64,000 nt of DNA from Bradymonadia bacterium (GCA_046290225.1 JBKAGE010000044.1:34431-98430); one strand, 5' to 3'. Positions 38,562 through 62,069 are shown, counted from the first letter of the stretch. Program-made: numbers and translations. Notes: generated from the sequence alone by a model not told the origin.

Positions 38562-38661
38562 TCAGCCCCGGGAACACCCCACCCCCACCCCGGGGTTGCA
38601 GACCTTGCAGCTCAGCCTCAGCTGAGCCAAGGTGTCAGCCACCTTCAGCCCCCGGGATCAC

Positions 38662-40377
38662 ATGGCGCGCTCCAGCCTCTTCACCGTTGCTTTTGCCCCT
38701 GTCGTATTGCTGACGCTGGCGCCCCTCGGCGACGCAGCAGCCCAGCGCGGCAACCGCCCGCCCATGATCCGGCTGCCTGCTCGCACCGAGATCCCCGAGG
38801 GCATGCCCTGGAGCGGCCGTATCTCGGCCCCGGATCCAGAGGGATCTCCGGTGACCATCTCGGTGAGCGGCCTGCCTCCAGGGGCCCGGTGGTTGCCTCA
38901 CGAAGGCCGCGTCACCTTCACCCCGGACTTCATCCAAGGCGGCTACACGTGGCCTGTCACGGTCACCGCCAGCGATGGGCAGGCTGTTTCCGAAGGGCGC
39001 TTCAACCTCACCGTCTTCGACACCCTCAAGCCCCCTGAGCCTCGGGTGCTCAGCGAAGAGCGCGTGGGCAGCTGCACGGTGCTCAAGATGCACCAGATCA
39101 CCGACGTGTTCCTCGACGAAGAGCGCAAGGCTGGCCGTGGCATCCCTGCGGCGGTGGCGATCCCCAACCGCCGTGGACCTCATCCGGTGAAGATCACCCT
39201 GCACGGCTTCGGTGGTGGTCCGAGGGCCCGCTGTGACGGACGCTCCATCGTCATCGCACCGTACGATCCGCAGAACAGTTACTGGTGGGGGCACGGTCAG
39301 CATGCCCTCGGTGGGGTCGGCGCCCCGGATTACACCGCCCGCCGTGTGTTGCACCTGTTGGAGTGGGTGCTCAAGAACGTCGATGGTGCAGATCCTCAGC
39401 GGGTGTATGTGAGCGGGCACTCCATGGGCGGCGCAGGGGCTGCCACCATCGGGCTGCTGCACAGCCGACATTTTGCATGGATACATGCCCGCGAAGGTCA
39501 GAGCGTGCCCCGGAACCACCGCCCGAGCCGTCTGATGCAACTGAAAGCGCTTTGGGGCCCCATCGTGCCCGACGCCCGGAAGCGCCATGGCATCTGGGAT
39601 CACATGGATCTCACCCGCATAGTCACTGAGCAGCCCGATGCCCGTGATCAGTTCATCAGTCTCGAGCATGGCAAAGATGATCCAGTGATTCACTTTGGCG
39701 CAGCTGTGCAGCCCAGCCCACTCACGGGTCTCAACCTGTATCAAGCCCTACAAAAGCATCACGTGGGACACTTCGCCAGCTGGGACGAGGGCGGTCATGG
39801 TCCGCCGGATCCCATTTTGGGTCACCGTTGGTGGACCGAGGGCTGGCACCCGATCTTCGACGAGGTGACGTTTCTACGGCGCGATCTGGCGTTCCCAGCT
39901 TTCTCTGGTTTCAGCCTCGACGGAAACCCTGGGGGATTCGTGGGCAACGGCACCCTGCTCTGGCACGAAGAGACGGGCTATGCCGGCGATCACACCACCG
40001 CCGGTGACACAGGCTGGGAAGGCGACATCGCCGGCGCGCTGAACCGCTTCCTCCGCTGGGACGCCACCACCATCGTCGACACCCCCGACCGCTTCGAGAT
40101 CGCCTTCAAGCTCGTCGACGGGCGTGGTGGCCCTGCGCCGCGATCGGGCTACCCTACGACGGGCGATCGACTGCCCGAGCCCAAGTCGGGCACAGTGAGT
40201 GTCACCCCCCGCCGCGTGCAGGCATTCCTCTGCACCCCTGGTGAGAAGGTGAGATGGCGTCTGCAAGGGGACTCAAAGGCCTCCGGGCACGTCACAGCAG
40301 GTGACGATGGCAGCATTACGGTTCCAGATTTACCGGTGAACACTCAGTGGCAACGGCTCGTGCTCTCTCGACGCTGA
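38662..40377 (+). CDS. Secreted Ig-like domain plus alpha/beta hydrolase
   Basis: NRPP..DPEG..GLPPGA Ig domain; LHGFG, GHSMG, HGKDD, GGHG catalytic motifs. Confidence 0.82.
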   Translation: MARSSLFTVAFAPVVLLTLAPLGDAAAQRGNRPPMIRLPARTEIPEGMPWSGRISAPDPEGSPVTISVSGLPPGARWLPHEGRVTFTPDFIQGGYTWPVTVTASDGQAVSEGRFNLTVFDTLKPPEPRVLSEERVGSCTVLKMHQITDVFLDEERKAGRGIPAAVAIPNRRGPHPVKITLHGFGGGPRARCDGRSIVIAPYDPQNSYWWGHGQHALGGVGAPDYTARRVLHLLEWVLKNVDGADPQRVYVSGHSMGGAGAATIGLLHSRHFAWIHAREGQSVPRNHRPSRLMQLKALWGPIVPDARKRHGIWDHMDLTRIVTEQPDARDQFISLEHGKDDPVIHFGAAVQPSPLTGLNLYQALQKHHVGHFASWDEGGHGPPDPILGHRWWTEGWHPIFDEVTFLRRDLAFPAFSGFSLDGNPGGFVGNGTLLWHEETGYAGDHTTAGDTGWEGDIAGALNRFLRWDATTIVDTPDRFEIAFKLVDGRGGPAPRSGYPTTGDRLPEPKSGTVSVTPRRVQAFLCTPGEKVRWRLQGDSKASGHVTAGDDGSITVPDLPVNTQWQRLVLSRR

Positions 40378-40542
40378 TTACACACCTGCAGCAAACAACA
40401 AACACACCTTTGTATCGTCAAGTCTGATTGCTGCATTTTCCATGGCGGATCGACACATCTGCCGATAGCATGTATGGCTAAGTCTGTTTCGTTCGCACAT
40501 CGATGACTTCACCCATAGCTGTGGGTGAAGAGGACCTGCTGT

Positions 40543-43500
40543 ATGCGCAATCTTCACCTCCTCGCCTTGTCCAGCCTGGGCTTGGGACTCGCCATCACCG
40601 CCCTCCCAACGGCCGCATCTGCAGAGCATCGCTGTGCAGTGTTGAGCGATGGCAGCGTCAAATGCTGGGGCAACAACGGCAATGGCCAGCTCGGTCAGGG
40701 CGACACCTCCAACCGCGGCATCTATGCGCCAGAGACCTATGGGGCACTCCCAGGTATCTCGCTCGATGGCCAAGCCACGGCGATCTCCACCGGTGGAGAT
40801 CACGCCTGCGCAGTGTTGGACGATGGCAGCGTCAAATGCTGGGGGCTCAACAACTACGGCCAGCTCGGTCAGGGTGACACCTCATATCGTGGGGATCACG
40901 CCAACGAGATGGGGGCCAACCTCGCGCCCATCTCTCTCGGTGCCGGCGCTGCAGCGGTGGACGTCACCGGCGGCGCCCAGCACACCTGTGCCACCCGTGC
41001 CGACGGCAGCGTCAAATGCTGGGGCCGCAACGACTATGGCCAGCTCGGCCTTGGCCACACCACCCGCACCGGCGATCACGCCAACGAGATGGGCGACAAC
41101 CTCGCACACATCGACTTCGGTGATGGCCGCTCGGCGGTCTCGGTGTTCTCCAGCGCCGAGAGTGACTTCAGCTGTGCGATCCTGAACGACGGCGCCGTGA
41201 AGTGCTGGGGCTACAACTCCAATGGCCAGCTCGGCCAGGGTGATACCCAGAACCGCGGCTGGCGGCCCCCGGAGATGGGCGGCGATCTCACCGCCATCGA
41301 TCTCGATGGAGACGCCACTCAGGTGTCTACTGGTGAGCACCATGTCTGCGCCCTGCTCGATGACGGCAGCGTCAAGTGCTGGGGCCGCAACAACTATGGC
41401 CAGCTCGGTCAATCGGACACAGCTCAGCGGGGCGATCACGCCAACGAGATGGGCGCAGCGCTCGATGGCGTCGATCTCGGTACCAACCGTACGGCCACTG
41501 ATGTCGCCACAGGTGCCCAGCACAACTGTGTCCTGCTCGACGACAACAGCATCAAATGTTGGGGCCGCAACGACTATGGTCAGCTCGGCCTCGGCCACAC
41601 GACTCGCCTCGGCGATCACGCCAATGAGATGGGTGACAACCTCGGCACCGTGAACCTCGGCACGGGCTATACCGCCGCTGACGTCGACGCCAACAACCAG
41701 ACCGCATGCGCGATCCTGAACAATGGCGACGTGAAGTGCTGGGGCTACAACGCCAATGGCCAGCTCGGCCAGGGTGACACCCACAACCGTGGCAACATCG
41801 CCCCCGAGATGGGCGGTGACCTGCCCGATACGGTGCCTGATGGCTCGCAGGCTGTGGCTCAGGCCGACGCGGGCCTCTTCTCCATGTGCGCCCGCCTCGC
41901 TGACGGCAGCGTGAGATGCTGGGGCCGCAACAACTATGGCCAGCTCGGCTATGGCGACACCACCCAACGGGGTGATCATGCCGGTGAGATGAGCGGCCTC
42001 GGCAACGTGGATCTCGGCACAGGTCGCACTGCCACTGACATCACCAGCGCCGACTACCATGCCTGTGCGGTGTTGGATCATGGCGGCATCAAGTGCTGGG
42101 GCCGCAATGACTATGGTCAGCTCGGCATCGGCAGCACCACCCGCCTCGGCGATCACGCCAACGAGATGGGTGACAACCTGCCCACCATCAACCTCGGCAC
42201 TGGCTACACCGCCGCTGACGTGGTGAGCAACGGCAACACCAGCTGCGCGATCCTGAACACAGGCGAGGTGAAGTGCTGGGGTTACAACTCCAATGGCCAG
42301 CTCGGCCAGGGCGACACCCACAACCGCGGCATCATCCCCCCGGAGATGGGTGGTGATCTGCCTGACGTGGAGATCACCCCCGGACTGGAGACCACCCAGC
42401 TCTCTGGTGGTGACAACTACACCTGCGCCCTGCTCGAAGACGGCACGGTGAAGTGCTGGGGTCGCAACAACTACGGCCAGCTCGGCTACGGCGACACCAC
42501 CCAACGGGGTGATCACGCCGGCGAGATGAGCGGCCTCAACCCTGTGGACCTCGGCACGGGCGCTCTGGCCTCGGCCCTCGGCAACGGCGGCCAGCACAGC
42601 TGCGCTCTCCTCAACAATGGCAGCATCAAATGCTGGGGCCGCAATGATTATGGTCAGCTCGGCATCGGCAGCACCACCCGCCTGGGCGATCACGCCAACG
42701 AGATGGGCGACAACCTGCCCACCATCAATCTCGGCACTGGCTACACCGCAGCCGCCATCGCCTCGGGCAACCAGAGCAACTGCGCGATCCTGAACAATGG
42801 CGATGTGAAGTGTTGGGGCTACAACGCCAATGGCCAGCTCGGCCAGGGCGATACCCACAACCGTGGCAACACCCCCGAAGAGATGGGTGGCCAGCTGACC
42901 GACATCGACGTGGGCACGGGCCTCACGCTGCTCAAGGCAGCCGGCGGACTTCATCACACCTGTGGTCTCACCGCTGGTGGTGAGGTGAAGTGCTGGGGCC
43001 GCAACAGCAACGGCGCCCTCGGCCTCGGTGACACCTCACATCGCGGGGATCACGCCAACGAGATGGGCGACGCCTTGGACCCTGTCGATCTCGGCACGGG
43101 GCTCACCGCCACCGACATCGCAACGGGCAACTATCACGGCTGCGCGGTGCTCAACACGGGTGACGTAAAGTGCTGGGGCTACAACGGCCTGGGCCAGCTC
43201 GGCATCGGCAACACCACCAATCAGGGTGATCATCTCAACGAGCTGGGCGACAACCAGCCCACCGTCAACCTCGGCACTGGCTACACCGCCACCTCCATCG
43301 ATGCCCAGGAGGATACGAGCTGTGCACTCTTGAACGACGGCTCGGTGAAGTGCTGGGGCTCCAACAGCTACGGGCAGCTGGGCCAGGGCGACAGCATCAA
43401 CCGTGGCACCATCTCCCCTGAGATGGGTGGCGAGCTGCCTGACGTCGCTTTGGGCACGAACCTGGCGCTGACCAAGGCGGTGGCGGGGCAGGATCACACC

Positions 43501-46500
43501 TGCGGCCTGACGGAAGACGGCGAAATCAAGTGCTGGGGCCGCAACACTCACGGCGTGCTCGGCCTCGGTGACACCTCTCATCGCGGCGACCACGCCAACG
43601 AGATGGGCGATGCCCTGGACCCTGTGGACCTCGGCACCGGCCGCACCGCCACTGACGTTGCCACGGGCGGCTACCATGGTTGCGCCATCCTCGACACCGG
43701 CGACGTGAAGTGTTGGGGCTACAACGGACTTGGCAACCTCGGCATCGGCAACACCACCAATCAAGGTGATCATCTCAACGAACTCGGTGACAACCTGCCC
43801 GCCGTCAACCTTGGCACTGGCTACACAGCCACCTCCATCGACGCCAAAGAGAGCACCACCTGCGCCATCCTCAACACTGGTGACGTCAAGTGCTGGGGCT
43901 CCAACAGCAATGGCCAGCTCGGTCAGGGTGACACCCTCAGCCGCGGCACGGTCACAGAAGAGATGGGCGGCAAGCTCCCCGATGTCGTTTTGGGGACGAA
44001 CGTGGCGCTGACCAAAGCGGTTGCGGGTCAGGATCACACCTGCGGTCTGACAGAAGACGGCGAGATCAAATGCTGGGGGCGCAACACTCACGGCGTACTC
44101 GGCCTCGGCGACACCTCCCATCGTGGTGACCACCCCAACGAGATGGGCGATGCCCTGGACCCTGTGGACCTCGGCACCGGCCGCACCGCCACTGACGTCG
44201 CCACGGGCGGCTACCATGGCTGCGCCATCCTCGACACCGGCGATGTCAAATGCTGGGGCTACAACGGACTCGGCAACCTCGGCATCGGCAACACCACAAA
44301 CCAGGGTGATCACCCCAACGAGCTCGGTGACAACCAGCCCGTCGTGAACCTCGGCACCGGCTACACAGCCACCTCCATCGACGCCAAAGAGAGCACCACC
44401 TGTGCGATCTTGAACGACGGCTCTGTGAAGTGCTGGGGTGCCAACGACTACGGGCAGCTGGGTCAGGGCGACACGCTCAGTCGCGGCACCATCGCCTCCG
44501 AGATGGGCGGTGCTCTGCCCGATGTCGCTTTGGGGACGAACGTAGCGCTGACCAAGGCGGTTGCGGGTCAGGATCACACCTGCGGCCTGACGGAAGACGG
44601 CGAAATCAAGTGCTGGGGCCGCAACACTCACGGCGTGCTCGGCCTCGGCGACACCTCCCATCGTGGTGACCACGCCAACGAGATGGGTGATGCCCTGGAC
44701 CCTGTGGACCTCGGCACCGGCCGCACCGCCACTGACGTTGCCACGGGCGGCTACCACGGTTGCGCCATCCTCGACACCGGCGACGTGAAGTGTTGGGGCT
44801 ACAACGGACTTGGCAACCTCGGCATCGGCAACACCACCAATCAAGGTGATCATCTCAACGAACTCGGTGACAACCTGCCCGCCGTCAACCTTGGCACTGG
44901 CTACACAGCCACCTCCATCGACGCCAAAGAGAGCACCACCTGCGCCATCCTCAACACTGGTGACGTCAAGTGCTGGGGCTCCAACAGCAATGGCCAGCTC
45001 GGTCAGGGCGACGCCATCAGCCGCGGCACCATCACCCCCGAGATGGGTGGTGCTCTGTCCAACATCGATCTCGGCCCTGGGCTGACCGTCACCAAGGCCG
45101 TCTCGGGCACAGGTCACACGTGCGCTCAGTTGAGCGACGGGGTCGATACGGGCATCGTGAAGTGCTGGGGCCGCAACAGCTATGGCAACCTCGGCCTCGG
45201 TGACACCGCGCACCGTGGGGATCACGCCAACGAGATGGGCGCCCCCCTGCCCGCTGTCGATCTCGGCACGGGCCGGAGCGCATCGGATCTGATCTCAGGT
45301 GCACACCATACGTGCGCCGTCCTCGATGACGACACGTTGAAGTGCTGGGGGCTCAACGCCAACGGCCAGCTCGGCCAGGGCGACACCACCTACCGCGGTG
45401 ATCATGCCAACGAGATGGGCGACAACCTCACCACCATCGACCTGGGTACTCAGGGCACTCTGGCCTCGGCAGCAGCGGGTGGCTCCACCAGCTGCGCCCT
45501 GTTGAGCAATGGCGACGTGAAGTGCTGGGGCTACAATGGCTACGGCAACCTCGGCCAGGACGACACCCTCGACCGCGGCACCATCGCCCCGGAGATGGGC
45601 CGAGATTTGCTCGATGTCGATCTGAACGGTGCAGTGACCGCGCTGGCCACTGGTCAGGACTTCGCCTGTGCTCTGCTTCAGAGTGGCCAGGTCCAGTGTT
45701 GGGGCCGGAACAACTATGGCCAGCTCGGCCTCGGTGACACCTCGCATCGTGGCGATCATGCCAATGAGATGGGCGTGGCGCTGCCCACAGTCGACCTCGG
45801 CACTGGGCGCTCTGCTCAGCAAATCGCCGCCGGTGACTTCCACACTTGTGCGATCCTCGACGACGGTACGCTGAAGTGCTGGGGCCTCAACAACTATGGT
45901 CAGCTCGGCCAGGGCGACACCACCTACCGCGGTGATCACGCCAACGAGATGGGCGACAACCTCTCCGCCATCGACCTGGGTGCTGGTCGCTCCGCCGTGG
46001 CTGTCACGGTGGGCGCCAGCCACACGTGTGCCCTGCTCGATGACGACACGGTGAAATGCTGGGGCTACAACGGCTATGGCAACCTCGGCTATGGCGACAC
46101 CGCCAGCCGCGGTGACGCCGCCAACGAGATGGGCGACAACCTCGCCGCCATCGATCTCGGCGATGGCGCCCAAGCCATCTCTGCCAGCACGCATCACACC
46201 TGCGCCCTGCTGAACAGCGGCGCGGTGAAGTGCTGGGGTCGCAACAACAATGGGCAGCTCGGCGTCGGCAACACCACCCAATACGGTGACGGCGCCAACG
46301 AAATGGGCGCCAACCTGCCTGCCGTCAACCTCGGCACCGGCCTCACCGCCCAGCAGATCACCACTGGCTTGCATTACACCTGCGCTCTGTTGAGCGACGA
46401 CAACGTGAAGTGTTGGGGTCGCAACAACTATGGCCAGCTCGGTGTCGGCCACACCAGCGCTCGAGGCACCAGCGGCGGCCACATGGGCGACAACCTCGCC

Positions 46501-49500
46501 TACGTCGACCTCGGTGCAGGTGCAACGGTCAGCGACATCAGCGCCACCCACGATCACACCTGCGCCACCCTCACCAATGGCGACGTAAAATGCTGGGGCT
46601 ACAACGCCAACGGTCAGCTCGGCGTGCTCAGCACCGACAACCGCGGTGATGCAGCAAACGAGATGGGTGATCTTCTCCCAGCAGCGCGCGTGGCCCCCGG
46701 CTTGAACCTCACGTCGGCTTCAGCCGGTGGTCGATTCAGCTGTGGCATCACCCAGGCAGGGGCTGTGAAGTGTTGGGGCTACAACGGCTACGGCAACCTC
46801 GGCTATGGCGACACCACTCAACGTGGTGATGTGACCGGCGGCCTCGGTGACGACACGCCCCCCATCCTCTTGGGACAGGCAGCCACGCAACTCTCTGTCG
46901 GCCAGCATCACACCTGCGCCCTGCTCGACGACGGCTCAGCAAAGTGCTGGGGCCGCAACAACTACGGCCAGCTCGGTGTCGGCAACACCACTCAGTACGG
47001 TGACAGCCGCGGTGAAATGGCCAGTCTGCCCACCATCAGCGTCGGCACGGGTCGTACCGTCGCCGAGATAGGCGTCGGCCATCATCACACGTGTGCGCTG
47101 CTGGACAATGGCGGTGTGAAGTGCTGGGGCCGTAATGACTTTGGCCAGCTCGGTGTGAGTCACAGCAGCGCCCGAGGCTCCAGCAGCAGTCACATGGGTG
47201 ACAACCTCGCTTACGTTGACCTCGGCACGGGCCGCACCGCCACTGACATCGAGGTGGGCAACCATCACACCTGCGCCGTGCTCGACAACGGCCGCACCAA
47301 GTGCTGGGGCTACAACAACAATGGCCAGCTCGGTGTACTCAGCACCGACAACCGCGGTGACGCCGCCAACGAGATGGGTGATCTCTTGCCTGAGGTCAGC
47401 CTGCTCTACACGCAGGGCGTATCGCAGGTCACCACAGGCGATCTGCACAGCTGCGCTGTCTTCTCAGGAGGCCAGATGCAGTGCTGGGGCTACAACGGCT
47501 ATGGCCAGCTCGGGCAGAACGACACCACGCAGCGTGGCGATGTCACTGGCGGCCTGGGCGACGACACACCCCCCATCCTCCTCGGTCAGGCTGCAACTCA
47601 GGTCTCAGTGGGCACGTATCACGCATGCGCGGTGCTGGCAGACGGCTCAGCGAAGTGCTGGGGCTACAACGGCTACGGCAACCTCGGCGTCGGCAACACG
47701 ACTCAGTATGGTGACAGCCGCGGCGAGATGGCCGCCCTGCCCACCATCAACCTTGGCGCTGGTCGTACAGTCACTGAGATCGACCTCGGCCATCATCACA
47801 CGTGCGCACTGCTCGACAATGGCGGTGTGAAGTGCTGGGGTCGCAATGACTTTGGCCAGCTCGGTGTCGGTCACACCAGCACCCGAGGCTCCAGCAACAG
47901 CCATATGGGCGACAACCTTGCCTACGTCGACCTCGGTACGGGGCGCACCGCTGTCGACATCGAGGTGGGCGGTCACCATGCTTGCGCCACCTTGGACAAC
48001 GGCCGCACCAAGTGCTGGGGCCGCAACAGCAACGGTCAGCTCGGCGTGCTCAGCACCGACAACCGCGGTGATGCAGCAAACGAGATGGGTGATCTCCTGC
48101 CTGAGGTGAACCTGCTCTACACGCGGAACGTGATTCAGTCTGTTTCGGGCATCAATCACAGCTGCGCCGTCTTCGCTGATGGTCAGATTCAGTGCTGGGG
48201 CTACAACGGCTACGGCCAGCTTGGCCAGAACAACACCACACAGCTCGGCGATGTCACAGGCGGTATGGGCGACGATACGCCCCCCATCCTCCTTGGTCAG
48301 GCCGCTACGCAGGTCTCTGTGGGCACGTATCACGCATGCGCGGTGCTGGCAGACGGCTCAGCGAAGTGCTGGGGCTACAACGGCTACGGCAACCTCGGCA
48401 CCGGCAACACCACTCAATACGGTGACAGCCGCGGCGAGATGGCCGCCCTGCCCACCATCAACCTCGGCGCCGGCCTCACTGTTGCCGAAATCGGCGCAGG
48501 CCATCATCACACATGTGCACTGCTCAACAATGGCGGGGTGAAGTGCTGGGGCCGCAACGACTTCGGCCAGCTCGGCCAGGGCAACACCAGCACCCGTGGC
48601 GACAGCATCAGCGAGATGGGCGACAACCTCGCCTATGTCGATCTTGGCACTGGCCGTACCGCTGTCGACATCGAGGTGGGCGGTCACCATGCTTGCGCCA
48701 CCTTGGACAACGGCCGCACCAAGTGCTGGGGCCGCAACAACCATGGCCAGCTTGGCGTGCTCAGCACCGACAACCGCGGTGACGCCGCCAACGAGATGGG
48801 CGATCTCCTGCCTGAGGTCAATCTGCTCTACACGCGGAACGTGATTCAGTCTGTTTCGGGCATCAATCACAGCTGCGCAGTCTTCGCTGATGGTCAGATT
48901 CAGTGTTGGGGCTACAATGGCTACGGCCAGCTCGGCCAGGAAGACACCCAAGCACGTGGTGATGTCACTGGCGGTATGGGCGACGACACGCCCCCCATCC
49001 TCCTGGGTCAGGCAGCCACGCAGGTCTCAGTGGGTACGTATCACGCGTGCGCGGTGCTGGCAGACGGCTCGGCAAAGTGCTGGGGCTACAACGGCTACGG
49101 CAACCTCGGCACTGGTAACACCACTCAATACGGTGACAGCCGCGGTGAGATGGCCGCCCTGCCCACCATCAACCTCGGCGCCGGCCTCACTGTCTCTGAG
49201 ATCGGTGCAGGGGTACATCACACGTGTGCGCTGCTCAACAACGGTGGGGTGAAGTGCTGGGGCCGAAACGATTATGGCCAGCTCGGTGTGAGTCACAGCA
49301 GCACTCGAGGCTCCAGCAGCAGTCACATGGGTGACAACCTCGCCTATGTCGACCTTGGCACCGGACGTACCGCCACCGACATCGAGGTGGGCGGTCACCA
49401 TGCTTGCGCTACTTTGGATAACGGCCGCACCAAGTGCTGGGGCCGTAACAACCATGGCCAGCTTGGCGTGCTCAGCACCGACAACCGCGGTGACGCCGCC

Positions 49501-52500
49501 AACGAGATGGGCGATCTCCTGCCTGAGGTCAATCTGCTCTACACGCGGAACGTGATTCAGTCTGTTTCGGGCATCAATCACAGCTGCGCCGTCTTCGACG
49601 ATGGTCAGATTCAGTGCTGGGGCTACAACGGCTACGGCCAGCTCGGCCAGAGCGACACTCAAACACGTGGCGATGTCACTGGTGGTATGGGCGACGACAC
49701 GCCTCCCATCCTCCTTGGTCAGGCCGCTACGCAGGTCTCCGTCGGCAACTACCATGTGTGTGCAGTGCTGGCGGATGGCTCGGCGAAGTGCTGGGGTTAC
49801 AATGGCTACGGTAACCTCGGCGTCGGCAACACGACTCAGTATGGTGACAGCCGCGGCGAAATGGCCGCCCTGCCCACCATCAATCTCGGCGCCGGCCGCA
49901 CTGTCTCTGAGATCGGCACAGGCATCCATCACACGTGCGCGCTGCTGGACAATGGCGGTGTGAAGTGCTGGGGCCGTAACAACTATGGCCAGCTCGGCCA
50001 GGGGAACACCAGCCAGCGCGGCGACAGCATCAGCGAGATGGGCGACAACCTCGCCTATGTCGATCTCGGCGCGGGCCGTACCGCCACCGACATCGAGGTG
50101 GGCGGTCATCATGCCTGCGCAGTGCTCGACAACGGACGCACCAAGTGCTGGGGCCGCAACAACACTGGCCAGCTTGGCGTGCTCGGCACCGACAACCGCG
50201 GTGACGCAGCCAACGAGATGGGTGATCTCCTGCCTGAGGTCAACCTGCTCTACACCCGTAACGTCACGCACACCATCACGGGCACGAACCACAGCTGTGC
50301 CCTCTTCACTGATGGCCAGATGCAGTGCTGGGGCTACAACGGCTATGGCCAGCTCGGCACCGAGAGCACAACACAGATCGGCGATGTCACGGGTGGCATG
50401 GGCGATGACACGGCGCCGGTCATCCTGGGGCAAGCGGCGACGCAGGTGTCGGTGGGCGATCATCACACGTGCGCGGTGTTGGCTGACGGCTCAGCGAAGT
50501 GCTGGGGCTACAACGGCTATGGCCAGCTCGGCCAGGGCAACTCGACGCAGTACGGTGACAACCCTGGCGAGATGGCCAGCCTCACACCCATCAGCCTCGG
50601 CGCGGGCCGCACCGTCACCCAGATCGGCGCCGGGCAGTATCACACCTGCGCTTTGCTCGATAACGGCCGCGTGAAGTGCTTCGGCTACAACAACGTCGGC
50701 CAGCTTGGCTACGGCTACACCAGCAACCGTGGCACCAGCCACAGCCACCTGGGTGACAACCTCGCCTATGTCGACCTCGGCAATGACGCCAATGGTGATC
50801 CGTTGCTCGCCACGCAGATCTCGGTGGTGAACGATCACAGCTGCGCCCGACTCAGCACCGGCCGGGTGAAGTGCTGGGGCCGCAACAGCAACGGTCAGCT
50901 CGGCGTGCTCAGCACCGCTCACCGCGGCGACAACAGCAACGAGATGGGTGATCTCCTGCCCGAGGTCAGCCTGCTCTACGATCGGCCAGTGGCGGCGGTC
51001 ACAGCCTTTGGCCACCAGGCCTGCGCCCTGCTCGCTGACGGCGCGGTGCAGTGCTGGGGCTACAACGGCTATGGCCAGCTCGGATATGACGACACTCAGC
51101 GGCGCGGTGATGTCACCGGCGGCATCGGCGACGACACACCCCCGATCTTCCTGGGTACGGGCCGCACCGCTACGCAGGTGTCGGTGGGTGCGCTCCACGC
51201 CTGTGCCGTGCTCGACGACCAGACTTTGAAGTGTTGGGGCTACAATGGCTATGGCCAGCTCGGCCTGGGCAACACCACTCAGTACGGTGACAACCCCGGC
51301 GAGATGGTCAGCCTCAACACCGTCAACCTCGGCACCCAGGGCTTCCCGGTTCAGGTGGGTACCGGTGACAACCACAGCTGCGCCCGCCTCAACACCGGCC
51401 GCATCAAGTGCTGGGGTCGCAACAACTACGGCCAGCTGGGTCAGGGGAACACCAGCCAGCGCGGCGACAGCATCAGCGAGATGGGCGACAACCTCGCCTT
51501 CACCGACCTGGGCACTGACGGCAACGGCGATCCGCTCACAGCCACGCACCTCGACGTGGGCCCCAACCACGCCTGCGCCACCCTCACCACGGGCCGCATC
51601 AAGTGCTGGGGCCGTAACAACACGGGTCAGCTGGGCGTTCAGGCCACCGACAGCCGCGGTGATTCAGCCAACGAGATGGGCAACCTGCTGCCTGAGGTCA
51701 ACCTGCTCACCGATCGAGCAGCGGTCTCCACCCTGGCCGGTGGCAACTACACCTGCGCCCATCTCGAAGATGGTGCCCTCAAGTGCTGGGGCTACAACGG
51801 CTACGGCAACCTCGGCCTCGAGAACACTGTGCAGCGCGGCGATGCCACGGGCGGTATGGGCGACGACACGGCGCCGATCATCCTGGGGCAGGCAGCGACG
51901 CAGGTGTCGGTGGGGGATCATCACACGTGCGCGGTGCTGGCAGACGGCTCGGCGAAGTGCTGGGGCTACAACGGCTACGGCCAGCTCGGCCAGGGCAACT
52001 CGACGCAGTACGGCGACAACCCTGGCGAGATGGCCAACCTTTCGGCCATCAACCTCGGCGCGGGCCGCACCGTCACTCAGATCGGCGCCGGGCAGTATCA
52101 CACCTGTGCTTTGCTCGATAACGGCCGCGTGAAGTGCTTCGGCTACAACAACGTCGGCCAGCTTGGCTACGGCTACACCAGTAATCGCGGCACCAGCAGC
52201 AGCCACATGGGCGACAATCTCGCCTACGTCGACCTCGGCAATGATGCCCTTGGAGATCCGCTCACAGCTCTGAGCATCGACGTGGATTACGATCACACCT
52301 GTGCACAGCTCGCCAACGACACTGTTCGGTGCTGGGGTCGTAACAGCAACGGCCAGCTCGGCGCCCTCGACACCGCCCACCGCGGAGACAACAGCAACGA
52401 GATGGGCGACAACCTGCGCCCCACGCAGATCCCTGCAGGGGTGGCCGCGCTCTCCATGGGCGGCTCTTCCAGCTGCGCCCTCTATGCCGACGGCGCCGTG

Positions 52501-55500
52501 CGGTGCTGGGGCTACAACGGCTACGGCAACCTCGGACAAGGCGACACCAACACGCGAGGGAACGACGCTGGCGGTCTCGGCGACGAGCTCCAGCCGATCC
52601 GTCTGGGCACCGGCCGCACGGCCACTCAGGTGGCCCTCGGCTGGGGTCACGCCTGTGCCCTGCTCGATGATGGTGGGGTGAAGTGCTGGGGCTACAACGG
52701 CTACGGTCAGCTCGGCACTGGCAACACCACTCAGTACGGTGACGCCTACGTGGAGATGGGCGACAACCTCGCCTATGTGAACCTCGGCGGCGTGGCCGCG
52801 GTGGACATCAGCGCCAACTACAACTCCACCTGCGCCCTGCTCAGCAACGGCGACACCAAGTGCTGGGGTCGCAGCAACGTCGGCCAGCTCGGCCAGGGCA
52901 GCACCAGCACCCGAGGCGACAGCAGCAGCGAGCTGGGCAACAACCTCGCCACCACCGATCTCGGCTCGGGTGTGGTCACCGGCAGCCTCTACGGTGGCTA
53001 CCAGCACAGCTGTGCCCTTTTCGCAGACGGCACCGCCCGATGCTGGGGCCGCAACAGTTATGGTCAGCTCGGCATCATGACCACCGATCATCGCGGCGAT
53101 GCTGCGAACGAGATGGGTGATCGCCTGCCCCTCGCCCGCGTGGATCGTACGCGGGCCATGACCGAGATGGCCCTGGGCACGCACTTCAGTTGTGGTCTGC
53201 TCGCGGACGGCACGGTGAAGTGCTGGGGCCAGAACAACTACGGCCAGCTCGGCTATGGCGACACGCTCACTCGGGCAGAGCTGCGCGGTGGCTTCGGCGA
53301 AGACACCGACATCCTCGATCTGGGCACAGGCCGTACGGCGCAGACCGTCACTCAGGGGCGCTACCACAGCTGCGCCATCCTCGACGATGACACACTGAAG
53401 TGCTGGGGCTACAACGGCTATGGCCAGCTCGGCCAGGGCAACTCGACCCAGATGGGCGATCACTATGGCGAGATGGGCGATGACCTCCCGGCCATCAACC
53501 TCGGCACAGACGAGGCCGGTGACACCCACACCGTGGCTGCGGTCACCGGCGGCGAGTATCACACCTGCGCGCTGCTGGGGAACGACCGGGTGAAGTGCTG
53601 GGGCTACAACAACTATGGCAACCTCGGCCTCGGCTACACCAGCACCCGCGGCACCAGCAGCAGCCACATGGGCGACAACCTCGCCTATCTCGACCTCGGC
53701 ACCGACGGCAACGGAGATCCCCTTGCAGTCTCGGCGATCTCTGCTGGCGCACATCACACCTGCGCCATGTTCGAGAGCGGCGGGGTGAAGTGCTGGGGCC
53801 GCAACAACAACGGTCAGCTCGGCTACGGCGACACCAGCTCCCGTGGGGATCACGCCAACGAGATGGGCGACAGCCTCGCCTATGTCGACCTTGGGGTCGG
53901 CCGCACAGCGCAGATGATCACCACCGGCGACCGTCACAGCTGCGCCATGCTCGACAACAACCAGGTGAAGTGCTGGGGCTACAACCACTATGGCAACCTC
54001 GGCCTCGGCGACAACAACGCCCGCGGTGACGCCGCCAACGAGATGGGCGACGATCTGCCCCCGGTGGATCTCGGCACGGGCCGGGTGGCCCGCTCGGTGA
54101 CGGGTGGCCAGTTCTCCACCTGTGCCATCCTCGACACGGGCGACGTGAAGTGCTGGGGCTATAACAGCTACGGCGATCTCGGCCTCGGCGATACGTCTCA
54201 CCGAGGCGATCATGGGGGTGAGCTCGGCGATAACTTGCCCACTGTGGATCTCGGCACCGACGAGGCGGGCGACCCGCTCACAGCGGCGGTGCTCAGTGCC
54301 AGCATCTACAACGTCTGCGCCCTGCTCAGCGACGACACGGTGAAGTGCTGGGGCCGCAACAATGCCGGTCAGCTCGGTCAGAACGACACCGCCAACCGCG
54401 GGGATCACGCCAACGAGCTCGGCGACAACCTGCCCCCCATCGACTTCGGTGATGGGCTGTCCATCGACCTGTACAATGGTCTGTCGAATGGTCGCCCGGG
54501 CATCGGTTGTGACGACGCAGATCGCGACGGGCTCTGCGACGGGGGCGACAACTGCCCCCTCGTGCCCAACGTCACTCAGTCCGATCTCGATCAGGATGGC
54601 CAGGGCGACGCCTGCGACGCTTGCCCCACCGACGCCCTCAACGACGTGGATGGTGATGGCGTCTGCGGCGACGTGGACAACTGCCCTGTGACGAACAACC
54701 CCTTGCAGATCGACGCCGATCTCGACGGGGCGGGTGACGCCTGTGACCTGTGCGCCTACGACTTCTACGATGACATCGACAACGATGGCATCTGCGGCGA
54801 CGTGGACAACTGCCCCACGGTCATCAACCCGGATCAGGTCGACGACAACGGCGACGGCTATGGCGACGCCTGCGTGAGCCCCACGGCGGACATCGGCGAC
54901 GACGTGCGCATCGAGGGTGACGTGGTCCTGGGCCCCAACGCCGTCATCGGCGACGAGTCGATCATCCAGAACGGCGCCAACGTCGGCGGCATCCTCGGCC
55001 GCAAGAACTTCATCGGTGAGAATGCCATCGTACCCGAAGGCTGCGTGCTGGCCGATCTGGTGTACATCGGTGCGAACACAGTGCTCGAGGCGCCCTGCAA
55101 CATCGGTGAGCTGACCCGCATCGAGGCCAACAGCCACGTCTCGAGCGACGCGGTCATCGGCGCCCGGAACGCCATCGGCTCAGGCACCACCATCCACCCC
55201 AGGGTGCAGACCTCTGGCGGCGTGATCATCGGTGCTGACTCCACCATCGGCGCTGACACCGTCTTGGGGACCAACGCCGCCTTCGGCGCTCGGGCCAACA
55301 TCGGTGAGGACACCACCGTCGAGTCCAACGTGATCGTCGGCGACGATGTGCAGACCGGCACGGGGGTGAGCCTGCTGGCCAACGCAGTCATGGGTCATCG
55401 TGTCACCCTCGCCGACGCAGTGGTGGTCTCCACCTATGCCCGGGTGAGCGACGATGTCTCTGTCGGTGCCCGCAGCCGCCTCGCAAGCGGCTCCGTCGTC

Positions 55501-56130
55501 GGCGCGAGCTCCACCATCGGGGCCGACTCCGAGGTCCGCGGTGCTGTGGGCGACTCGGTGCAGCTGGGCAACAACGTCTTCATAGGGAACCAGAGCAGCG
55601 TCGGTGATCTGAGCACCCTCGACGACGGCGTCACACTGGGGATCTTCGTGCAGATCGACGTGCAGAACCACCTGCGGGCCAACGTGACGGTCTACGACAA
55701 GGTCACCATCGGCCCCGACGGCGACCTCGGTGCCAACACCCTGGTGCTCTTCTTTGCGGAGATCGGCGCCCGGGCCCAGGTGGGCGCCGAGGGCCTCATC
55801 GACGAAGCCAATGTCATCGGCGACGACTTCACCATGGGCACCAACAGCCGCATCTGGCCTCGGGGGCAGCTGGGCAACAACGTCACCTTCGGCGACGGTG
55901 TGCTGGTGCGGGATCACAGCAACATCGGCGACGATGTCACGCTGGAAGACGGCGTCATCGCCTACCCCTACACCACCATCGGTGCTCAGACGACGGTCCG
56001 GGCGGGGGTGGGCCTCGGGGTGGCGATTTGCGCCACTCAGCGATGTGGTGAGGTCACCCTCGGGGGCTGCCTCGACATCGACTCGGACGTCGACGTCGGC
56101 GTGGAGATGGCCGACGCCTGCAACCCCTGA
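40543..56130 (+). CDS. Giant secreted RCC1-repeat protein (77 blades) with thrombospondin type-3 repeats and a C-terminal left-handed beta-helix
   Basis: Signal peptide; 77 C-W/F-G.N..G.LG repeats by manual count; DNCP/GDACD repeats at 54508-54873; hexapeptide I/V-G repeats at 54874-56130. Confidence 0.95.
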   Translation: MRNLHLLALSSLGLGLAITALPTAASAEHRCAVLSDGSVKCWGNNGNGQLGQGDTSNRGIYAPETYGALPGISLDGQATAISTGGDHACAVLDDGSVKCWGLNNYGQLGQGDTSYRGDHANEMGANLAPISLGAGAAAVDVTGGAQHTCATRADGSVKCWGRNDYGQLGLGHTTRTGDHANEMGDNLAHIDFGDGRSAVSVFSSAESDFSCAILNDGAVKCWGYNSNGQLGQGDTQNRGWRPPEMGGDLTAIDLDGDATQVSTGEHHVCALLDDGSVKCWGRNNYGQLGQSDTAQRGDHANEMGAALDGVDLGTNRTATDVATGAQHNCVLLDDNSIKCWGRNDYGQLGLGHTTRLGDHANEMGDNLGTVNLGTGYTAADVDANNQTACAILNNGDVKCWGYNANGQLGQGDTHNRGNIAPEMGGDLPDTVPDGSQAVAQADAGLFSMCARLADGSVRCWGRNNYGQLGYGDTTQRGDHAGEMSGLGNVDLGTGRTATDITSADYHACAVLDHGGIKCWGRNDYGQLGIGSTTRLGDHANEMGDNLPTINLGTGYTAADVVSNGNTSCAILNTGEVKCWGYNSNGQLGQGDTHNRGIIPPEMGGDLPDVEITPGLETTQLSGGDNYTCALLEDGTVKCWGRNNYGQLGYGDTTQRGDHAGEMSGLNPVDLGTGALASALGNGGQHSCALLNNGSIKCWGRNDYGQLGIGSTTRLGDHANEMGDNLPTINLGTGYTAAAIASGNQSNCAILNNGDVKCWGYNANGQLGQGDTHNRGNTPEEMGGQLTDIDVGTGLTLLKAAGGLHHTCGLTAGGEVKCWGRNSNGALGLGDTSHRGDHANEMGDALDPVDLGTGLTATDIATGNYHGCAVLNTGDVKCWGYNGLGQLGIGNTTNQGDHLNELGDNQPTVNLGTGYTATSIDAQEDTSCALLNDGSVKCWGSNSYGQLGQGDSINRGTISPEMGGELPDVALGTNLALTKAVAGQDHTCGLTEDGEIKCWGRNTHGVLGLGDTSHRGDHANEMGDALDPVDLGTGRTATDVATGGYHGCAILDTGDVKCWGYNGLGNLGIGNTTNQGDHLNELGDNLPAVNLGTGYTATSIDAKESTTCAILNTGDVKCWGSNSNGQLGQGDTLSRGTVTEEMGGKLPDVVLGTNVALTKAVAGQDHTCGLTEDGEIKCWGRNTHGVLGLGDTSHRGDHPNEMGDALDPVDLGTGRTATDVATGGYHGCAILDTGDVKCWGYNGLGNLGIGNTTNQGDHPNELGDNQPVVNLGTGYTATSIDAKESTTCAILNDGSVKCWGANDYGQLGQGDTLSRGTIASEMGGALPDVALGTNVALTKAVAGQDHTCGLTEDGEIKCWGRNTHGVLGLGDTSHRGDHANEMGDALDPVDLGTGRTATDVATGGYHGCAILDTGDVKCWGYNGLGNLGIGNTTNQGDHLNELGDNLPAVNLGTGYTATSIDAKESTTCAILNTGDVKCWGSNSNGQLGQGDAISRGTITPEMGGALSNIDLGPGLTVTKAVSGTGHTCAQLSDGVDTGIVKCWGRNSYGNLGLGDTAHRGDHANEMGAPLPAVDLGTGRSASDLISGAHHTCAVLDDDTLKCWGLNANGQLGQGDTTYRGDHANEMGDNLTTIDLGTQGTLASAAAGGSTSCALLSNGDVKCWGYNGYGNLGQDDTLDRGTIAPEMGRDLLDVDLNGAVTALATGQDFACALLQSGQVQCWGRNNYGQLGLGDTSHRGDHANEMGVALPTVDLGTGRSAQQIAAGDFHTCAILDDGTLKCWGLNNYGQLGQGDTTYRGDHANEMGDNLSAIDLGAGRSAVAVTVGASHTCALLDDDTVKCWGYNGYGNLGYGDTASRGDAANEMGDNLAAIDLGDGAQAISASTHHTCALLNSGAVKCWGRNNNGQLGVGNTTQYGDGANEMGANLPAVNLGTGLTAQQITTGLHYTCALLSDDNVKCWGRNNYGQLGVGHTSARGTSGGHMGDNLAYVDLGAGATVSDISATHDHTCATLTNGDVKCWGYNANGQLGVLSTDNRGDAANEMGDLLPAARVAPGLNLTSASAGGRFSCGITQAGAVKCWGYNGYGNLGYGDTTQRGDVTGGLGDDTPPILLGQAATQLSVGQHHTCALLDDGSAKCWGRNNYGQLGVGNTTQYGDSRGEMASLPTISVGTGRTVAEIGVGHHHTCALLDNGGVKCWGRNDFGQLGVSHSSARGSSSSHMGDNLAYVDLGTGRTATDIEVGNHHTCAVLDNGRTKCWGYNNNGQLGVLSTDNRGDAANEMGDLLPEVSLLYTQGVSQVTTGDLHSCAVFSGGQMQCWGYNGYGQLGQNDTTQRGDVTGGLGDDTPPILLGQAATQVSVGTYHACAVLADGSAKCWGYNGYGNLGVGNTTQYGDSRGEMAALPTINLGAGRTVTEIDLGHHHTCALLDNGGVKCWGRNDFGQLGVGHTSTRGSSNSHMGDNLAYVDLGTGRTAVDIEVGGHHACATLDNGRTKCWGRNSNGQLGVLSTDNRGDAANEMGDLLPEVNLLYTRNVIQSVSGINHSCAVFADGQIQCWGYNGYGQLGQNNTTQLGDVTGGMGDDTPPILLGQAATQVSVGTYHACAVLADGSAKCWGYNGYGNLGTGNTTQYGDSRGEMAALPTINLGAGLTVAEIGAGHHHTCALLNNGGVKCWGRNDFGQLGQGNTSTRGDSISEMGDNLAYVDLGTGRTAVDIEVGGHHACATLDNGRTKCWGRNNHGQLGVLSTDNRGDAANEMGDLLPEVNLLYTRNVIQSVSGINHSCAVFADGQIQCWGYNGYGQLGQEDTQARGDVTGGMGDDTPPILLGQAATQVSVGTYHACAVLADGSAKCWGYNGYGNLGTGNTTQYGDSRGEMAALPTINLGAGLTVSEIGAGVHHTCALLNNGGVKCWGRNDYGQLGVSHSSTRGSSSSHMGDNLAYVDLGTGRTATDIEVGGHHACATLDNGRTKCWGRNNHGQLGVLSTDNRGDAANEMGDLLPEVNLLYTRNVIQSVSGINHSCAVFDDGQIQCWGYNGYGQLGQSDTQTRGDVTGGMGDDTPPILLGQAATQVSVGNYHVCAVLADGSAKCWGYNGYGNLGVGNTTQYGDSRGEMAALPTINLGAGRTVSEIGTGIHHTCALLDNGGVKCWGRNNYGQLGQGNTSQRGDSISEMGDNLAYVDLGAGRTATDIEVGGHHACAVLDNGRTKCWGRNNTGQLGVLGTDNRGDAANEMGDLLPEVNLLYTRNVTHTITGTNHSCALFTDGQMQCWGYNGYGQLGTESTTQIGDVTGGMGDDTAPVILGQAATQVSVGDHHTCAVLADGSAKCWGYNGYGQLGQGNSTQYGDNPGEMASLTPISLGAGRTVTQIGAGQYHTCALLDNGRVKCFGYNNVGQLGYGYTSNRGTSHSHLGDNLAYVDLGNDANGDPLLATQISVVNDHSCARLSTGRVKCWGRNSNGQLGVLSTAHRGDNSNEMGDLLPEVSLLYDRPVAAVTAFGHQACALLADGAVQCWGYNGYGQLGYDDTQRRGDVTGGIGDDTPPIFLGTGRTATQVSVGALHACAVLDDQTLKCWGYNGYGQLGLGNTTQYGDNPGEMVSLNTVNLGTQGFPVQVGTGDNHSCARLNTGRIKCWGRNNYGQLGQGNTSQRGDSISEMGDNLAFTDLGTDGNGDPLTATHLDVGPNHACATLTTGRIKCWGRNNTGQLGVQATDSRGDSANEMGNLLPEVNLLTDRAAVSTLAGGNYTCAHLEDGALKCWGYNGYGNLGLENTVQRGDATGGMGDDTAPIILGQAATQVSVGDHHTCAVLADGSAKCWGYNGYGQLGQGNSTQYGDNPGEMANLSAINLGAGRTVTQIGAGQYHTCALLDNGRVKCFGYNNVGQLGYGYTSNRGTSSSHMGDNLAYVDLGNDALGDPLTALSIDVDYDHTCAQLANDTVRCWGRNSNGQLGALDTAHRGDNSNEMGDNLRPTQIPAGVAALSMGGSSSCALYADGAVRCWGYNGYGNLGQGDTNTRGNDAGGLGDELQPIRLGTGRTATQVALGWGHACALLDDGGVKCWGYNGYGQLGTGNTTQYGDAYVEMGDNLAYVNLGGVAAVDISANYNSTCALLSNGDTKCWGRSNVGQLGQGSTSTRGDSSSELGNNLATTDLGSGVVTGSLYGGYQHSCALFADGTARCWGRNSYGQLGIMTTDHRGDAANEMGDRLPLARVDRTRAMTEMALGTHFSCGLLADGTVKCWGQNNYGQLGYGDTLTRAELRGGFGEDTDILDLGTGRTAQTVTQGRYHSCAILDDDTLKCWGYNGYGQLGQGNSTQMGDHYGEMGDDLPAINLGTDEAGDTHTVAAVTGGEYHTCALLGNDRVKCWGYNNYGNLGLGYTSTRGTSSSHMGDNLAYLDLGTDGNGDPLAVSAISAGAHHTCAMFESGGVKCWGRNNNGQLGYGDTSSRGDHANEMGDSLAYVDLGVGRTAQMITTGDRHSCAMLDNNQVKCWGYNHYGNLGLGDNNARGDAANEMGDDLPPVDLGTGRVARSVTGGQFSTCAILDTGDVKCWGYNSYGDLGLGDTSHRGDHGGELGDNLPTVDLGTDEAGDPLTAAVLSASIYNVCALLSDDTVKCWGRNNAGQLGQNDTANRGDHANELGDNLPPIDFGDGLSIDLYNGLSNGRPGIGCDDADRDGLCDGGDNCPLVPNVTQSDLDQDGQGDACDACPTDALNDVDGDGVCGDVDNCPVTNNPLQIDADLDGAGDACDLCAYDFYDDIDNDGICGDVDNCPTVINPDQVDDNGDGYGDACVSPTADIGDDVRIEGDVVLGPNAVIGDESIIQNGANVGGILGRKNFIGENAIVPEGCVLADLVYIGANTVLEAPCNIGELTRIEANSHVSSDAVIGARNAIGSGTTIHPRVQTSGGVIIGADSTIGADTVLGTNAAFGARANIGEDTTVESNVIVGDDVQTGTGVSLLANAVMGHRVTLADAVVVSTYARVSDDVSVGARSRLASGSVVGASSTIGADSEVRGAVGDSVQLGNNVFIGNQSSVGDLSTLDDGVTLGIFVQIDVQNHLRANVTVYDKVTIGPDGDLGANTLVLFFAEIGARAQVGAEGLIDEANVIGDDFTMGTNSRIWPRGQLGNNVTFGDGVLVRDHSNIGDDVTLEDGVIAYPYTTIGAQTTVRAGVGLGVAICATQRCGEVTLGGCLDIDSDVDVGVEMADACNP
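43441..45060 (+). repeat. Three near-identical 540-bp (3-blade) units
   Basis: GGATCACACCTGCGG recurs at 43491, 44031 and 44571. Confidence 0.92.
47540..49690 (+). repeat. Three near-identical 711-bp (4-blade) units
   Basis: ACGCGGAACGTGATTCAGTC recurs at 48121, 48832 and 49543. Confidence 0.92.
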
Positions 56131-62010: not shown

Positions 62011-62069
62011 CATGGTCTCAGGTGTCACCGCGGCCCGGTAGAGCCGCCCCCAACCTCTGGAGATCACTC

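Follow-up and report, generated by a model that had tools for sequence, protein, structure and literature searches.

How does a single protein chain fold when it carries 77 successive RCC1-type blades, with special loops recurring at every third blade in one part of the molecule and at every fourth blade in another? The question is raised by a gene in a 64,000-nucleotide stretch of DNA from a Bradymonadia bacterium (GCA_046290225.1, JBKAGE010000044.1:34431-98430), referred to here as the window, whose numbering is used for all positions. The gene lies on contig C44 of a genome of 8.58 Mb in 83 contigs (G000) and is a single plus-strand open reading frame (ORF) at 40525..56130, encoding 5201 amino acids from a GTG at 40525, or 5195 from an ATG at 40543 (the form recorded as P0002). 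Its product consists, in order, of a hydrophobic leader ending in ASA, the 77 RCC1 blades, thrombospondin type-3 (TSP3) repeats, a left-handed beta-helix, and a short Cys-containing tail. The reading preferred here, with moderate confidence, is that the 77 blades fold as eleven seven-bladed propellers nested by 3+4 pairing within one chain. In its fuller form, toward which we lean with similar restraint, the chain would run out and back along a straight rod, with ten recursive insertions of a propeller into a loop of another, exchange of D strands, and growth by paired duplication.

RCC1 profiles match the first 525 amino acids above their cut-offs (PF25390, 262.3 bits against 150; PF13540 (RCC1_2), 250.7 bits against 22; PF00415 (RCC1), 157.2 bits against 21.7), and the anchor motif C[WF]G is found 77 times, with successive copies 58–65 amino acids apart. 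The same number of blades was given in a preliminary description of this locus, which also placed the end of the blade array at 54480, near where the last blade is found to end. With the strand motifs as AlphaFold2 places them (strand A, xTxxVxxG; B, HxCAxL; C, GxVKCWG; D, LPxVDLG), the special segments sit in the long loop joining strand C to the next strand D. Two classes of these loops are present: ten c-type loops, of a pattern like RG-xxx-(P/E/S)-E-M-G-G, follow anchors 1, 4, ..., 28, and ten A-type loops, of a pattern like G-D-V-T-G-G-x-G-D-D, follow anchors 35, 39, ..., 71. A strict regular expression recovers 9 of the 10 c-type and 8 of the 10 A-type loops; those missed are the outermost, after anchors 1, 67, and 71, where the position is kept and the sequence is degenerate (RGIYAPETYG, RGNDAGGLGDE, and RAELRGGFGED, respectively). 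Cutting the array at the 20 special loops yields one blade, nine groups of three, a run of seven, nine groups of four, and a final six (1/3x9/7/4x9/6), which reproduces both the loop periods and the partition of the preliminary description. In the DNA, self-identity is maximal at an offset of 540 nucleotides (0.58) in blades 1–31 and of 711 nucleotides (0.59) in blades 32–77, the best-matching blades lie at a lag of 3 or 6, or of 4, 8, or 12, and super-periods of 1080 and 1422 nucleotides are present; TRF is blind to periods >500 nucleotides. The pattern of loops and blades is not due to chance, and the partition is real.

Along the chain, a probable Sec signal peptide, read by eye (MRNLHLLALSSLGLGLAITALPTAASA, then EHRC...; 40543..40623), precedes blade 1 (40624..40746), which has only strands B and C (HRCAVL and GSVKCWG) ahead of its degenerate c-type loop. 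The outgoing arm (40747..45606) is made of nine three-blade groups (a, b, c), each closing with a c-type loop (anchors at 41203, 41737, 42274, 42811, 43351, 43891, 44431, 44971, and 45523). The central seven contiguous blades, 29–35 (45607..46854), end with the first A-type loop (anchor at 46771), and the returning arm (46855..53304) comprises nine four-blade groups (B, C, D, A), each closing with an A-type loop (anchors at 47482, 48193, 48904, 49615, 50326, 51052, 51784, 52504, and 53221, the last two degenerate). The last six blades, 72–77, and a lone A-like strand, GLSIDLYNG, ahead of the TSP3 repeats occupy 53305..54480.

The letters denote seven blade types (a, b, c and B, C, D, A), for which a leave-one-out assignment was right for 61 of 63 blades. 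The central run is typed a b c B C D A, with blades 29, 32, 33, 34, and 35 assigned to a, B, C, D, and A and blades 30 and 31 receiving generic a/b typing only; at the C-terminal end, blade 72 types as B and blade 73 as C, and blades 74–77 are again generic a/b. Blade 1 types as c, both here and in a paralogue designated C36. The center holds one a-b-c and one B-C-D-A unit, so that every 3+4 pair would rebuild the same cyclic order, and when the loops are paired from the outside inward, as (1,71), (4,67) ... (28,35), all ten pairs enclose a multiple of seven blades.

The genome contains 30 RCC1 frames with at least three anchors, including two further giants. The C36 paralogue (3965-amino-acid frame, P0003) has 56 anchors and is 53% identical to the 77-blade protein over the central region. 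Its seven c-type loops follow anchors 1, 4, ..., 19 and its seven A-type loops anchors 26, 30, ..., 50, giving 1/3x6/7/4x6/6; all seven loop pairs enclose multiples of seven blades, and the totals of 56 and 77 are both divisible by seven. Both special-loop classes are kept between these ~53% identical paralogues. The preliminary description had proposed that three- and four-blade groups should be equally numerous in homologs, and this held in the sole full-length homolog available, the C36 paralogue with its 7 and 7 loops. Rings of six and eight blades were considered and rejected, since the seven three-blade and seven four-blade units of the C36 paralogue cannot be halved. A C36-like metagenomic fragment with its N-terminus cut (P0254, 1691 amino acids) has four A-type loops at a period of four and, after the last of these, exactly six blades followed by TSP3 repeats and a beta-helix. 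Besides P0254, no further carrier with at least two special loops was found among 477 proteins and 141 frames with at least five anchors, obtained from 40 relatives’ genomes, a 5.8-billion-protein set, an HMMER scan of 1.84 billion representatives, genome_contigs, and metagenome_contigs, with the best 120–150 matches per search examined, a scope that does not imply absence elsewhere. Candidate intermediates in the relatives G003 and G018 (~2450 amino acids) were rejected as single propellers split by Cys-rich modules.

The ends of the blade array resemble those of smaller relatives. In 24 of 27 RCC1 paralogues, the mature chain begins at strand B, with a hydrophobic leader and then the H-x-C-A strand, and single-propeller paralogues have an additional A-like strand ahead of the TSP3 repeats; by analogy with the latter, GLSIDLYNG is in our reading an A-like strand as well. 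Together, a strand-B start and a terminal A-like strand would close the ring, the final strand supplying what the first blade lacks. The 77- and 56-blade giants each retain both halves of this closure, ~4,600 and ~3,400 residues apart, respectively.

A rather unlikely alternative is that eleven seven-bladed propellers follow one another in a collinear string (blades 1–7, 8–14, and so on). The three- and four-blade periods would then be products of unequal crossing-over, with gene conversion keeping them in register; the special loops would be surface features, e.g., calcium- or ligand-binding, and selection would demand only whole seven-blade rings. A consecutive arrangement is reported as the rule for propellers (PMC6805158), the 540/711-nucleotide periods and 1080/1422-nucleotide super-periods are a signature of tandem duplication, and one relative, P0296, has 21 blades in succession that are almost linker-free. 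Collinear arrays in relatives, however, mark their seventh blades. Judged by its sequence, the C77 paralogue (L002, G000:C77:71800-82700, 3537-amino-acid frame) is a collinear control inside the same family: its six seven-blade units each start with strands B and C and close with an A-like strand followed by a Cys-rich TSP-like linker, with long poly-Gly insertions within one blade per unit. In the Bdellovibrio proteins P0274 and P0349, each of 14 blades, a 15-amino-acid linker separates D7 from A8, P0296 has divergent 7th and 14th units, and P0298 likewise has divergent 7th units. When each fetched protein is scored for its longest stretch free of long units, the distribution has peaks at 7 (101 of 412) and 14 (60 of 412). 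Besides P0274 and P0349, ~60 fetched proteins from Bdellovibrio and others have exactly 14 RCC1 blades; some 14-blade proteins have a 15-amino-acid linker after blade 7, and P0261 and L023-L025 are without any long unit.

In the 77-blade protein, unlike in C77, P0274, P0349, P0296, and P0298, multiples of seven are unmarked in length or sequence. No unit exceeds 65 amino acids, and units 7, 14, ..., 70 measure 58–60 amino acids; units 14 and 21 share 81–86% DNA identity with units that would be interior to rings in a collinear string, where near-identical units would serve both boundary and interior roles. A collinear string would also leave the first blade without strand A and the last A-like strand orphaned ~4,600 residues away, and conservation of the special loops as two classes across the two paralogues speaks against it as well. 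Its viable growth step would be a single seven-blade duplication, as relatives show: a super-period of 396–629 amino acids is clear in 4 other proteins of 149 scanned, by an offset-based survey that is too strict for a census. An anchor-lag version of the survey was dropped, being confounded by missed anchors.

Covariation of the junctions also bears on the arrangement of the arms. Between the similarity matrices of c-type and A-type junctions, the mirrored register gave r 0.70 in the 77-blade protein (rank 2 of 14 orientation/shift alternatives, free-permutation p 0.002) and r 0.62 in the C36 paralogue (rank 1 of 14, p 0.008), and this peak at the mirrored register counts against a collinear string. 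The youngest pairs of the C36 paralogue, the three-blade units U3/U4 (0.82 DNA identity) and the four-blade units V2/V3 (0.82), lie at partner junctions, as expected if partner duplications were coupled.

At the level of sequence, 3+4 pairing accounts for the pattern more readily than history alone does. The pairing is favored by the two conserved loop classes acting as brackets in two paralogues, a center with one unit of each kind, unmarked seventh blades, retained terminal closure halves, and mirrored junction covariation.

In the proposed nested fold, the chain would, after the signal peptide, lay down strands B and C of one base-ring blade, place one three-blade group (a, b, c) per ring in nine rings on its outward leg, build the tip ring from seven contiguous blades, and, on its return leg, supply the same nine rings with their four remaining blades each (B, C, D, A); the base ring would then be finished by six blades and a final A strand completing the first blade, in the order c(1)-72-...-77. 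At each crossover, strand C of blade c in the outer ring would lead through the c-type loop to the D strand of blade A in the inner ring, and strand C of the inner blade A would lead through the A-type loop back to strand D of that outer blade c, with each inner ring inserted in the C-D loop of its host, as propeller BPB is in BPA of Trm734. The ring order would be A-a-b-c-B-C-D in every ring, and the strand bookkeeping would close exactly. The entry blade A and the exit blade c would stand 3/7 of a turn apart, nearest to opposite in a sevenfold ring, so that the rings would form a rim-to-rim rod, with both chain ends at the base beside the TSP3 repeats and the beta-helix. In evolution, the array would lengthen as one three-blade and one four-blade unit are duplicated as a pair. 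We infer the strand assignments, the D-strand exchange, the rod shape, secretion, and a role of the protein in binding or adhesion.

Nesting of this kind has a precedent at one level in yeast Trm734, a WD40 protein in which, according to PMC6847430, strand c7 of BPA leads to d1 of BPB and c1 of BPB leads to d7 of BPA. As in the fold proposed here, a complete seven-bladed BPB lies between c7 and d7 of BPA, the guest ring closes on its own first D strand, and the host D strand is added after the guest ring. Trm734 differs in being a WD40 triple propeller with one nesting level and linkers, and a cytosolic tRNA-methyltransferase subunit, whereas the 77-blade protein, known from its sequence and models, would have ten unbranched levels with the same two blades used throughout and loops of ordinary length. 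Human RCC1 (1a12), UVR8, the RCC1-like domains (RLDs) of HERC2, and BLIP-II share the blade motif with the 77-blade protein but are single seven-bladed rings, as against 77 linker-free blades here. Paralogues in the same genome share its signal peptide, strand-B start, terminal A-like strand, TSP3 repeats, and beta-helix, but mostly have one propeller or another head, and C77 has six in a row with linkers after the closing A strands. Highly repetitive propellers, as presented in PMC9218822 and PMC6805158, resemble the giant in their recent tandem amplification, in their near-identical blades, and in being hard for AlphaFold; the giant differs in its three- and four-blade units, two separate arrays, and 77 blades. 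In one published survey, amplification is from one blade, with a single two-blade case and at most 47 blades (PMC9218822), and because amplification from multi-blade units is rare there, the three- and four-blade units favor the nest. In the open-access literature, no description was found of propeller nesting deeper than one level, nor of such an architecture for myxobacterial RCC1 proteins.

Several points weigh against the nested fold. The total number of blades is 14+3a+4b, which is divisible by seven exactly when a = b (mod 7), so that equal numbers of three- and four-blade groups are not independent of a whole number of seven-blade rings; such an equality is expected in a collinear string once three- and four-unit duplications alternate under a whole-ring constraint, and the preliminary description went too far in stating that the equal group numbers have no collinear explanation. 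Tandem duplication alone yields periods of three and four. Growth of the nest requires two duplications via an unpaired intermediate, and the outgoing arm could fold only once the returning arm had arrived, a folding problem in which ~1,700 residues must await their partners. The typing is weak for blades 30, 31, and 74–77, and the carriers of the pattern are two full-length proteins, both from one genome, and one fragment. The mirrored junction correlation is partly a block effect. At the level of whole units, mirrored similarity was suggestive (Mantel r 0.68, p 0.003 in the 77-blade protein; r 0.37, p 0.14 in the C36 paralogue), but a shift of -1 equals or exceeds a shift of 0 (0.73 vs 0.68 and 0.93 vs 0.37, respectively), and parallel shifts are also high (shift -3, 0.83 over 15 pairs, in the 77-blade protein; shift -1, 0.90 over 10 pairs, in the C36 paralogue). 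The unit-level comparison was set aside as support because neighboring and some parallel shifts do equally well, and the junction-level comparison was used, cautiously.

The AlphaFold2 predictions belong on the same side of the balance. Their alignments contained only the 77-blade protein and its paralogue. For a 14-blade fragment (blades 26–39), in which the nested and the collinear readings are each complete, AlphaFold2 gave two consecutive seven-blade rings that ignore the special loops (predicted local distance difference test (pLDDT) 59.3, predicted template modeling score (pTM) 0.50). The best structural matches of this model cover residues 442..830 or 514..846 (blades 33–39; Z 13–14.6, root-mean-square deviation (rmsd) 3.8–4.9 Å) and 2..448 (blades 26–32; rmsd 7.7–7.9 Å); a split ring, with blades 26–28 to 39 spanned and about one propeller aligned, is represented by 0 of the 50 matches listed. 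Autonomous closure of consecutive seven-blade windows, the outcome that the preliminary description had set against its own proposal, was thereby seen in silico for blades 26–39, at low confidence. For a 17-blade fragment (blades 26–42), the nested, global-collinear, and fragment-phase readings each leave three spare blades, and the result was ambiguous (pLDDT 61.0, pTM 0.51): matches to 195..595 fit blades 29–35 and matches to 619..990 fit blades 36–42 (rmsd 5–8 Å), and seven matches span residues 20–28 to 939–1031 (rmsd 5–8 Å). Top matches of the two models to RCC1, UVR8, and HERC2 chains had Z 10–14.6 and rmsd 3.8–7.8 Å.

The consecutive rings of the 14-blade model and the 29–35 and 36–42 fits of the 17-blade model speak for a collinear string, but both models are of low confidence, with pLDDT <50 in the loop and D-strand regions, and the ring phase moves with the fragment ends, so that AlphaFold2 sensed no intrinsic boundary. 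AlphaFold is described as failing on highly repetitive propeller arrays (PMC9218822). For the out-and-back arrangement of nested 3+4 propellers first put forward in the preliminary description, the loop brackets, blade types, C36 numbers, junction covariation, and Trm734 are in favor, and the consecutive rings of AlphaFold2 are not.

The arms were also co-folded in ESMFold2 as two chains, blades 36–43 and blades 23–28, with the center omitted; each chain could in principle close alone, as an 8- or a 6-ring. The interaction score (ipSAE) was 0.49 (runs 0.51, 0.46, and 0.49) vs 0.00 for the best of three controls, with a partner pLDDT of at least 85 and at least 92% of contacts agreeing between runs, and was graded as weak support. 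In calibration, the mark was reached by 116 of 157 solved complexes and 2 of 215 mismatched pairs, and scores ≤0.60 comprised 18 of the 157 solved complexes and both mismatches. To the points against nesting must be added that this score fits 3+4/3+4 and 7 plus 6+1 alike.

Having come from arms supplied as separate chains, the ESMFold2 result also suits the same 3+4 pairing made between chains, with two extended antiparallel molecules forming a domain-swapped dimer, which we regard as improbable. All the sequence evidence for 3+4 pairing fits such a dimer equally, the mirrored register being the same for an antiparallel dimer, and propeller fragments can assemble as oligomers, according to PMC6805158 and the title of PDB entry 6r60. 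The contiguous central seven blades, however, are a natural hairpin turn for an intramolecular fold, and the N-terminal half-blade and C-terminal A strand match the intramolecular closure of single-propeller paralogues.

Whether the number of blades is itself correct depends on the assembly of near-identical repeats. The longest exact DNA repeat within the gene is 251 nucleotides at an offset of 1080 (six blades), at 43678..43928 and 44758..45008; at the DNA level, blade 18 matches blade 24 exactly and blade 17 matches blade 23 at 97% identity, which points to recent duplication or gene conversion. Because of this exact repeat, short-read assembly could have miscounted six-blade units. No public reads bridging the repeats were found; one seawater-metagenome run contained 5% of the sampled words, its contigs are only 100–300 nucleotides and span no repeat, and apparent joints in them are cross-matches among repeats. 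That the pattern reflects an error in repeat number, or alternatively another fold, with rings of other sizes or an open spiral of blades, is very improbable. The 251-nucleotide repeat could mislead a short-read assembler, the 17-blade AlphaFold2 model may contain a ring wider than seven blades, and propeller fragments can form rings of other sizes (PMC6805158), but multiples of seven and matched loop numbers at two independent loci are unlikely to arise from random misassembly, and an open spiral predicts no multiple of seven.

Beyond the blades, the calcium-binding TSP3 repeats (54544..54882) are identified by Pfam TSP_3, the profile of the D-x-D-x-D-G-x-x-D-x-x-D motif (PF02412, 39.6 bits vs a cut-off of 25, in three stretches), and by sequence matches in the PDB to thrombospondin-2 (E 4e-26) and COMP (E 5e-25). 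The left-handed parallel beta-helix, made of hexapeptide repeats (55012..55980), matches PF00132 (Hexapep, 151.6 bits, cut-off 27) and PF25084 (LbH_EIF2B, 89.7 bits, cut-off 54), as well as LpxD and LpxA chains among PDB sequences (E 7e-8 to 1e-5). LpxA and LpxD form trimers. The same genome encodes at least 25 presumably secreted paralogues that share this C-terminal module of TSP3 repeats, left-handed beta-helix, and Cys tail, and their heads vary by Pfam from a single RCC1 propeller to fibrinogen C, COLFI (fibrillar-collagen C-terminal domain), and LamG. Members include G000:C44:904 (1228-amino-acid frame, upstream of the window) and others on C35, C82, C74, and C25. Because diverse heads are joined to this common C-terminal module, binding or adhesion is a plausible role, and the family would consist of secreted binding proteins to which the giant gene, presumably encoding a secreted, fiber-like protein, would add a very long reach.

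The genes adjoining the giant ORF gave no lead on its function. Its upstream neighbor (38632..40377, plus strand) encodes a 581-amino-acid protein that Pfam weakly assigns to a putative esterase and to a He_PIG Ig-like domain, and has no evident functional tie to the giant gene. Further downstream, a plus-strand gene at 62022..63182 encodes a 386-amino-acid protein with Pacifastin, Kazal, and Antistasin protease-inhibitor domains (Pfam), an odd combination for a bacterium.

Even as a collinear string, the protein would still be the longest uninterrupted blade array seen here, with 77 blades vs at most 47 in PMC9218822. If the nested fold is true, it would be the deepest nested domain architecture known and a natural test case in which current structure predictors appear to fail, and it would supply a rule for reading other giant RCC1 arrays, in which special loops serve as brackets. 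It would further show selection coupling duplications at two distant sites of one gene, and would represent a new route from a globular fold to a long, stiff extracellular rod, with both termini at the base and its contiguous tip ring available for binding.

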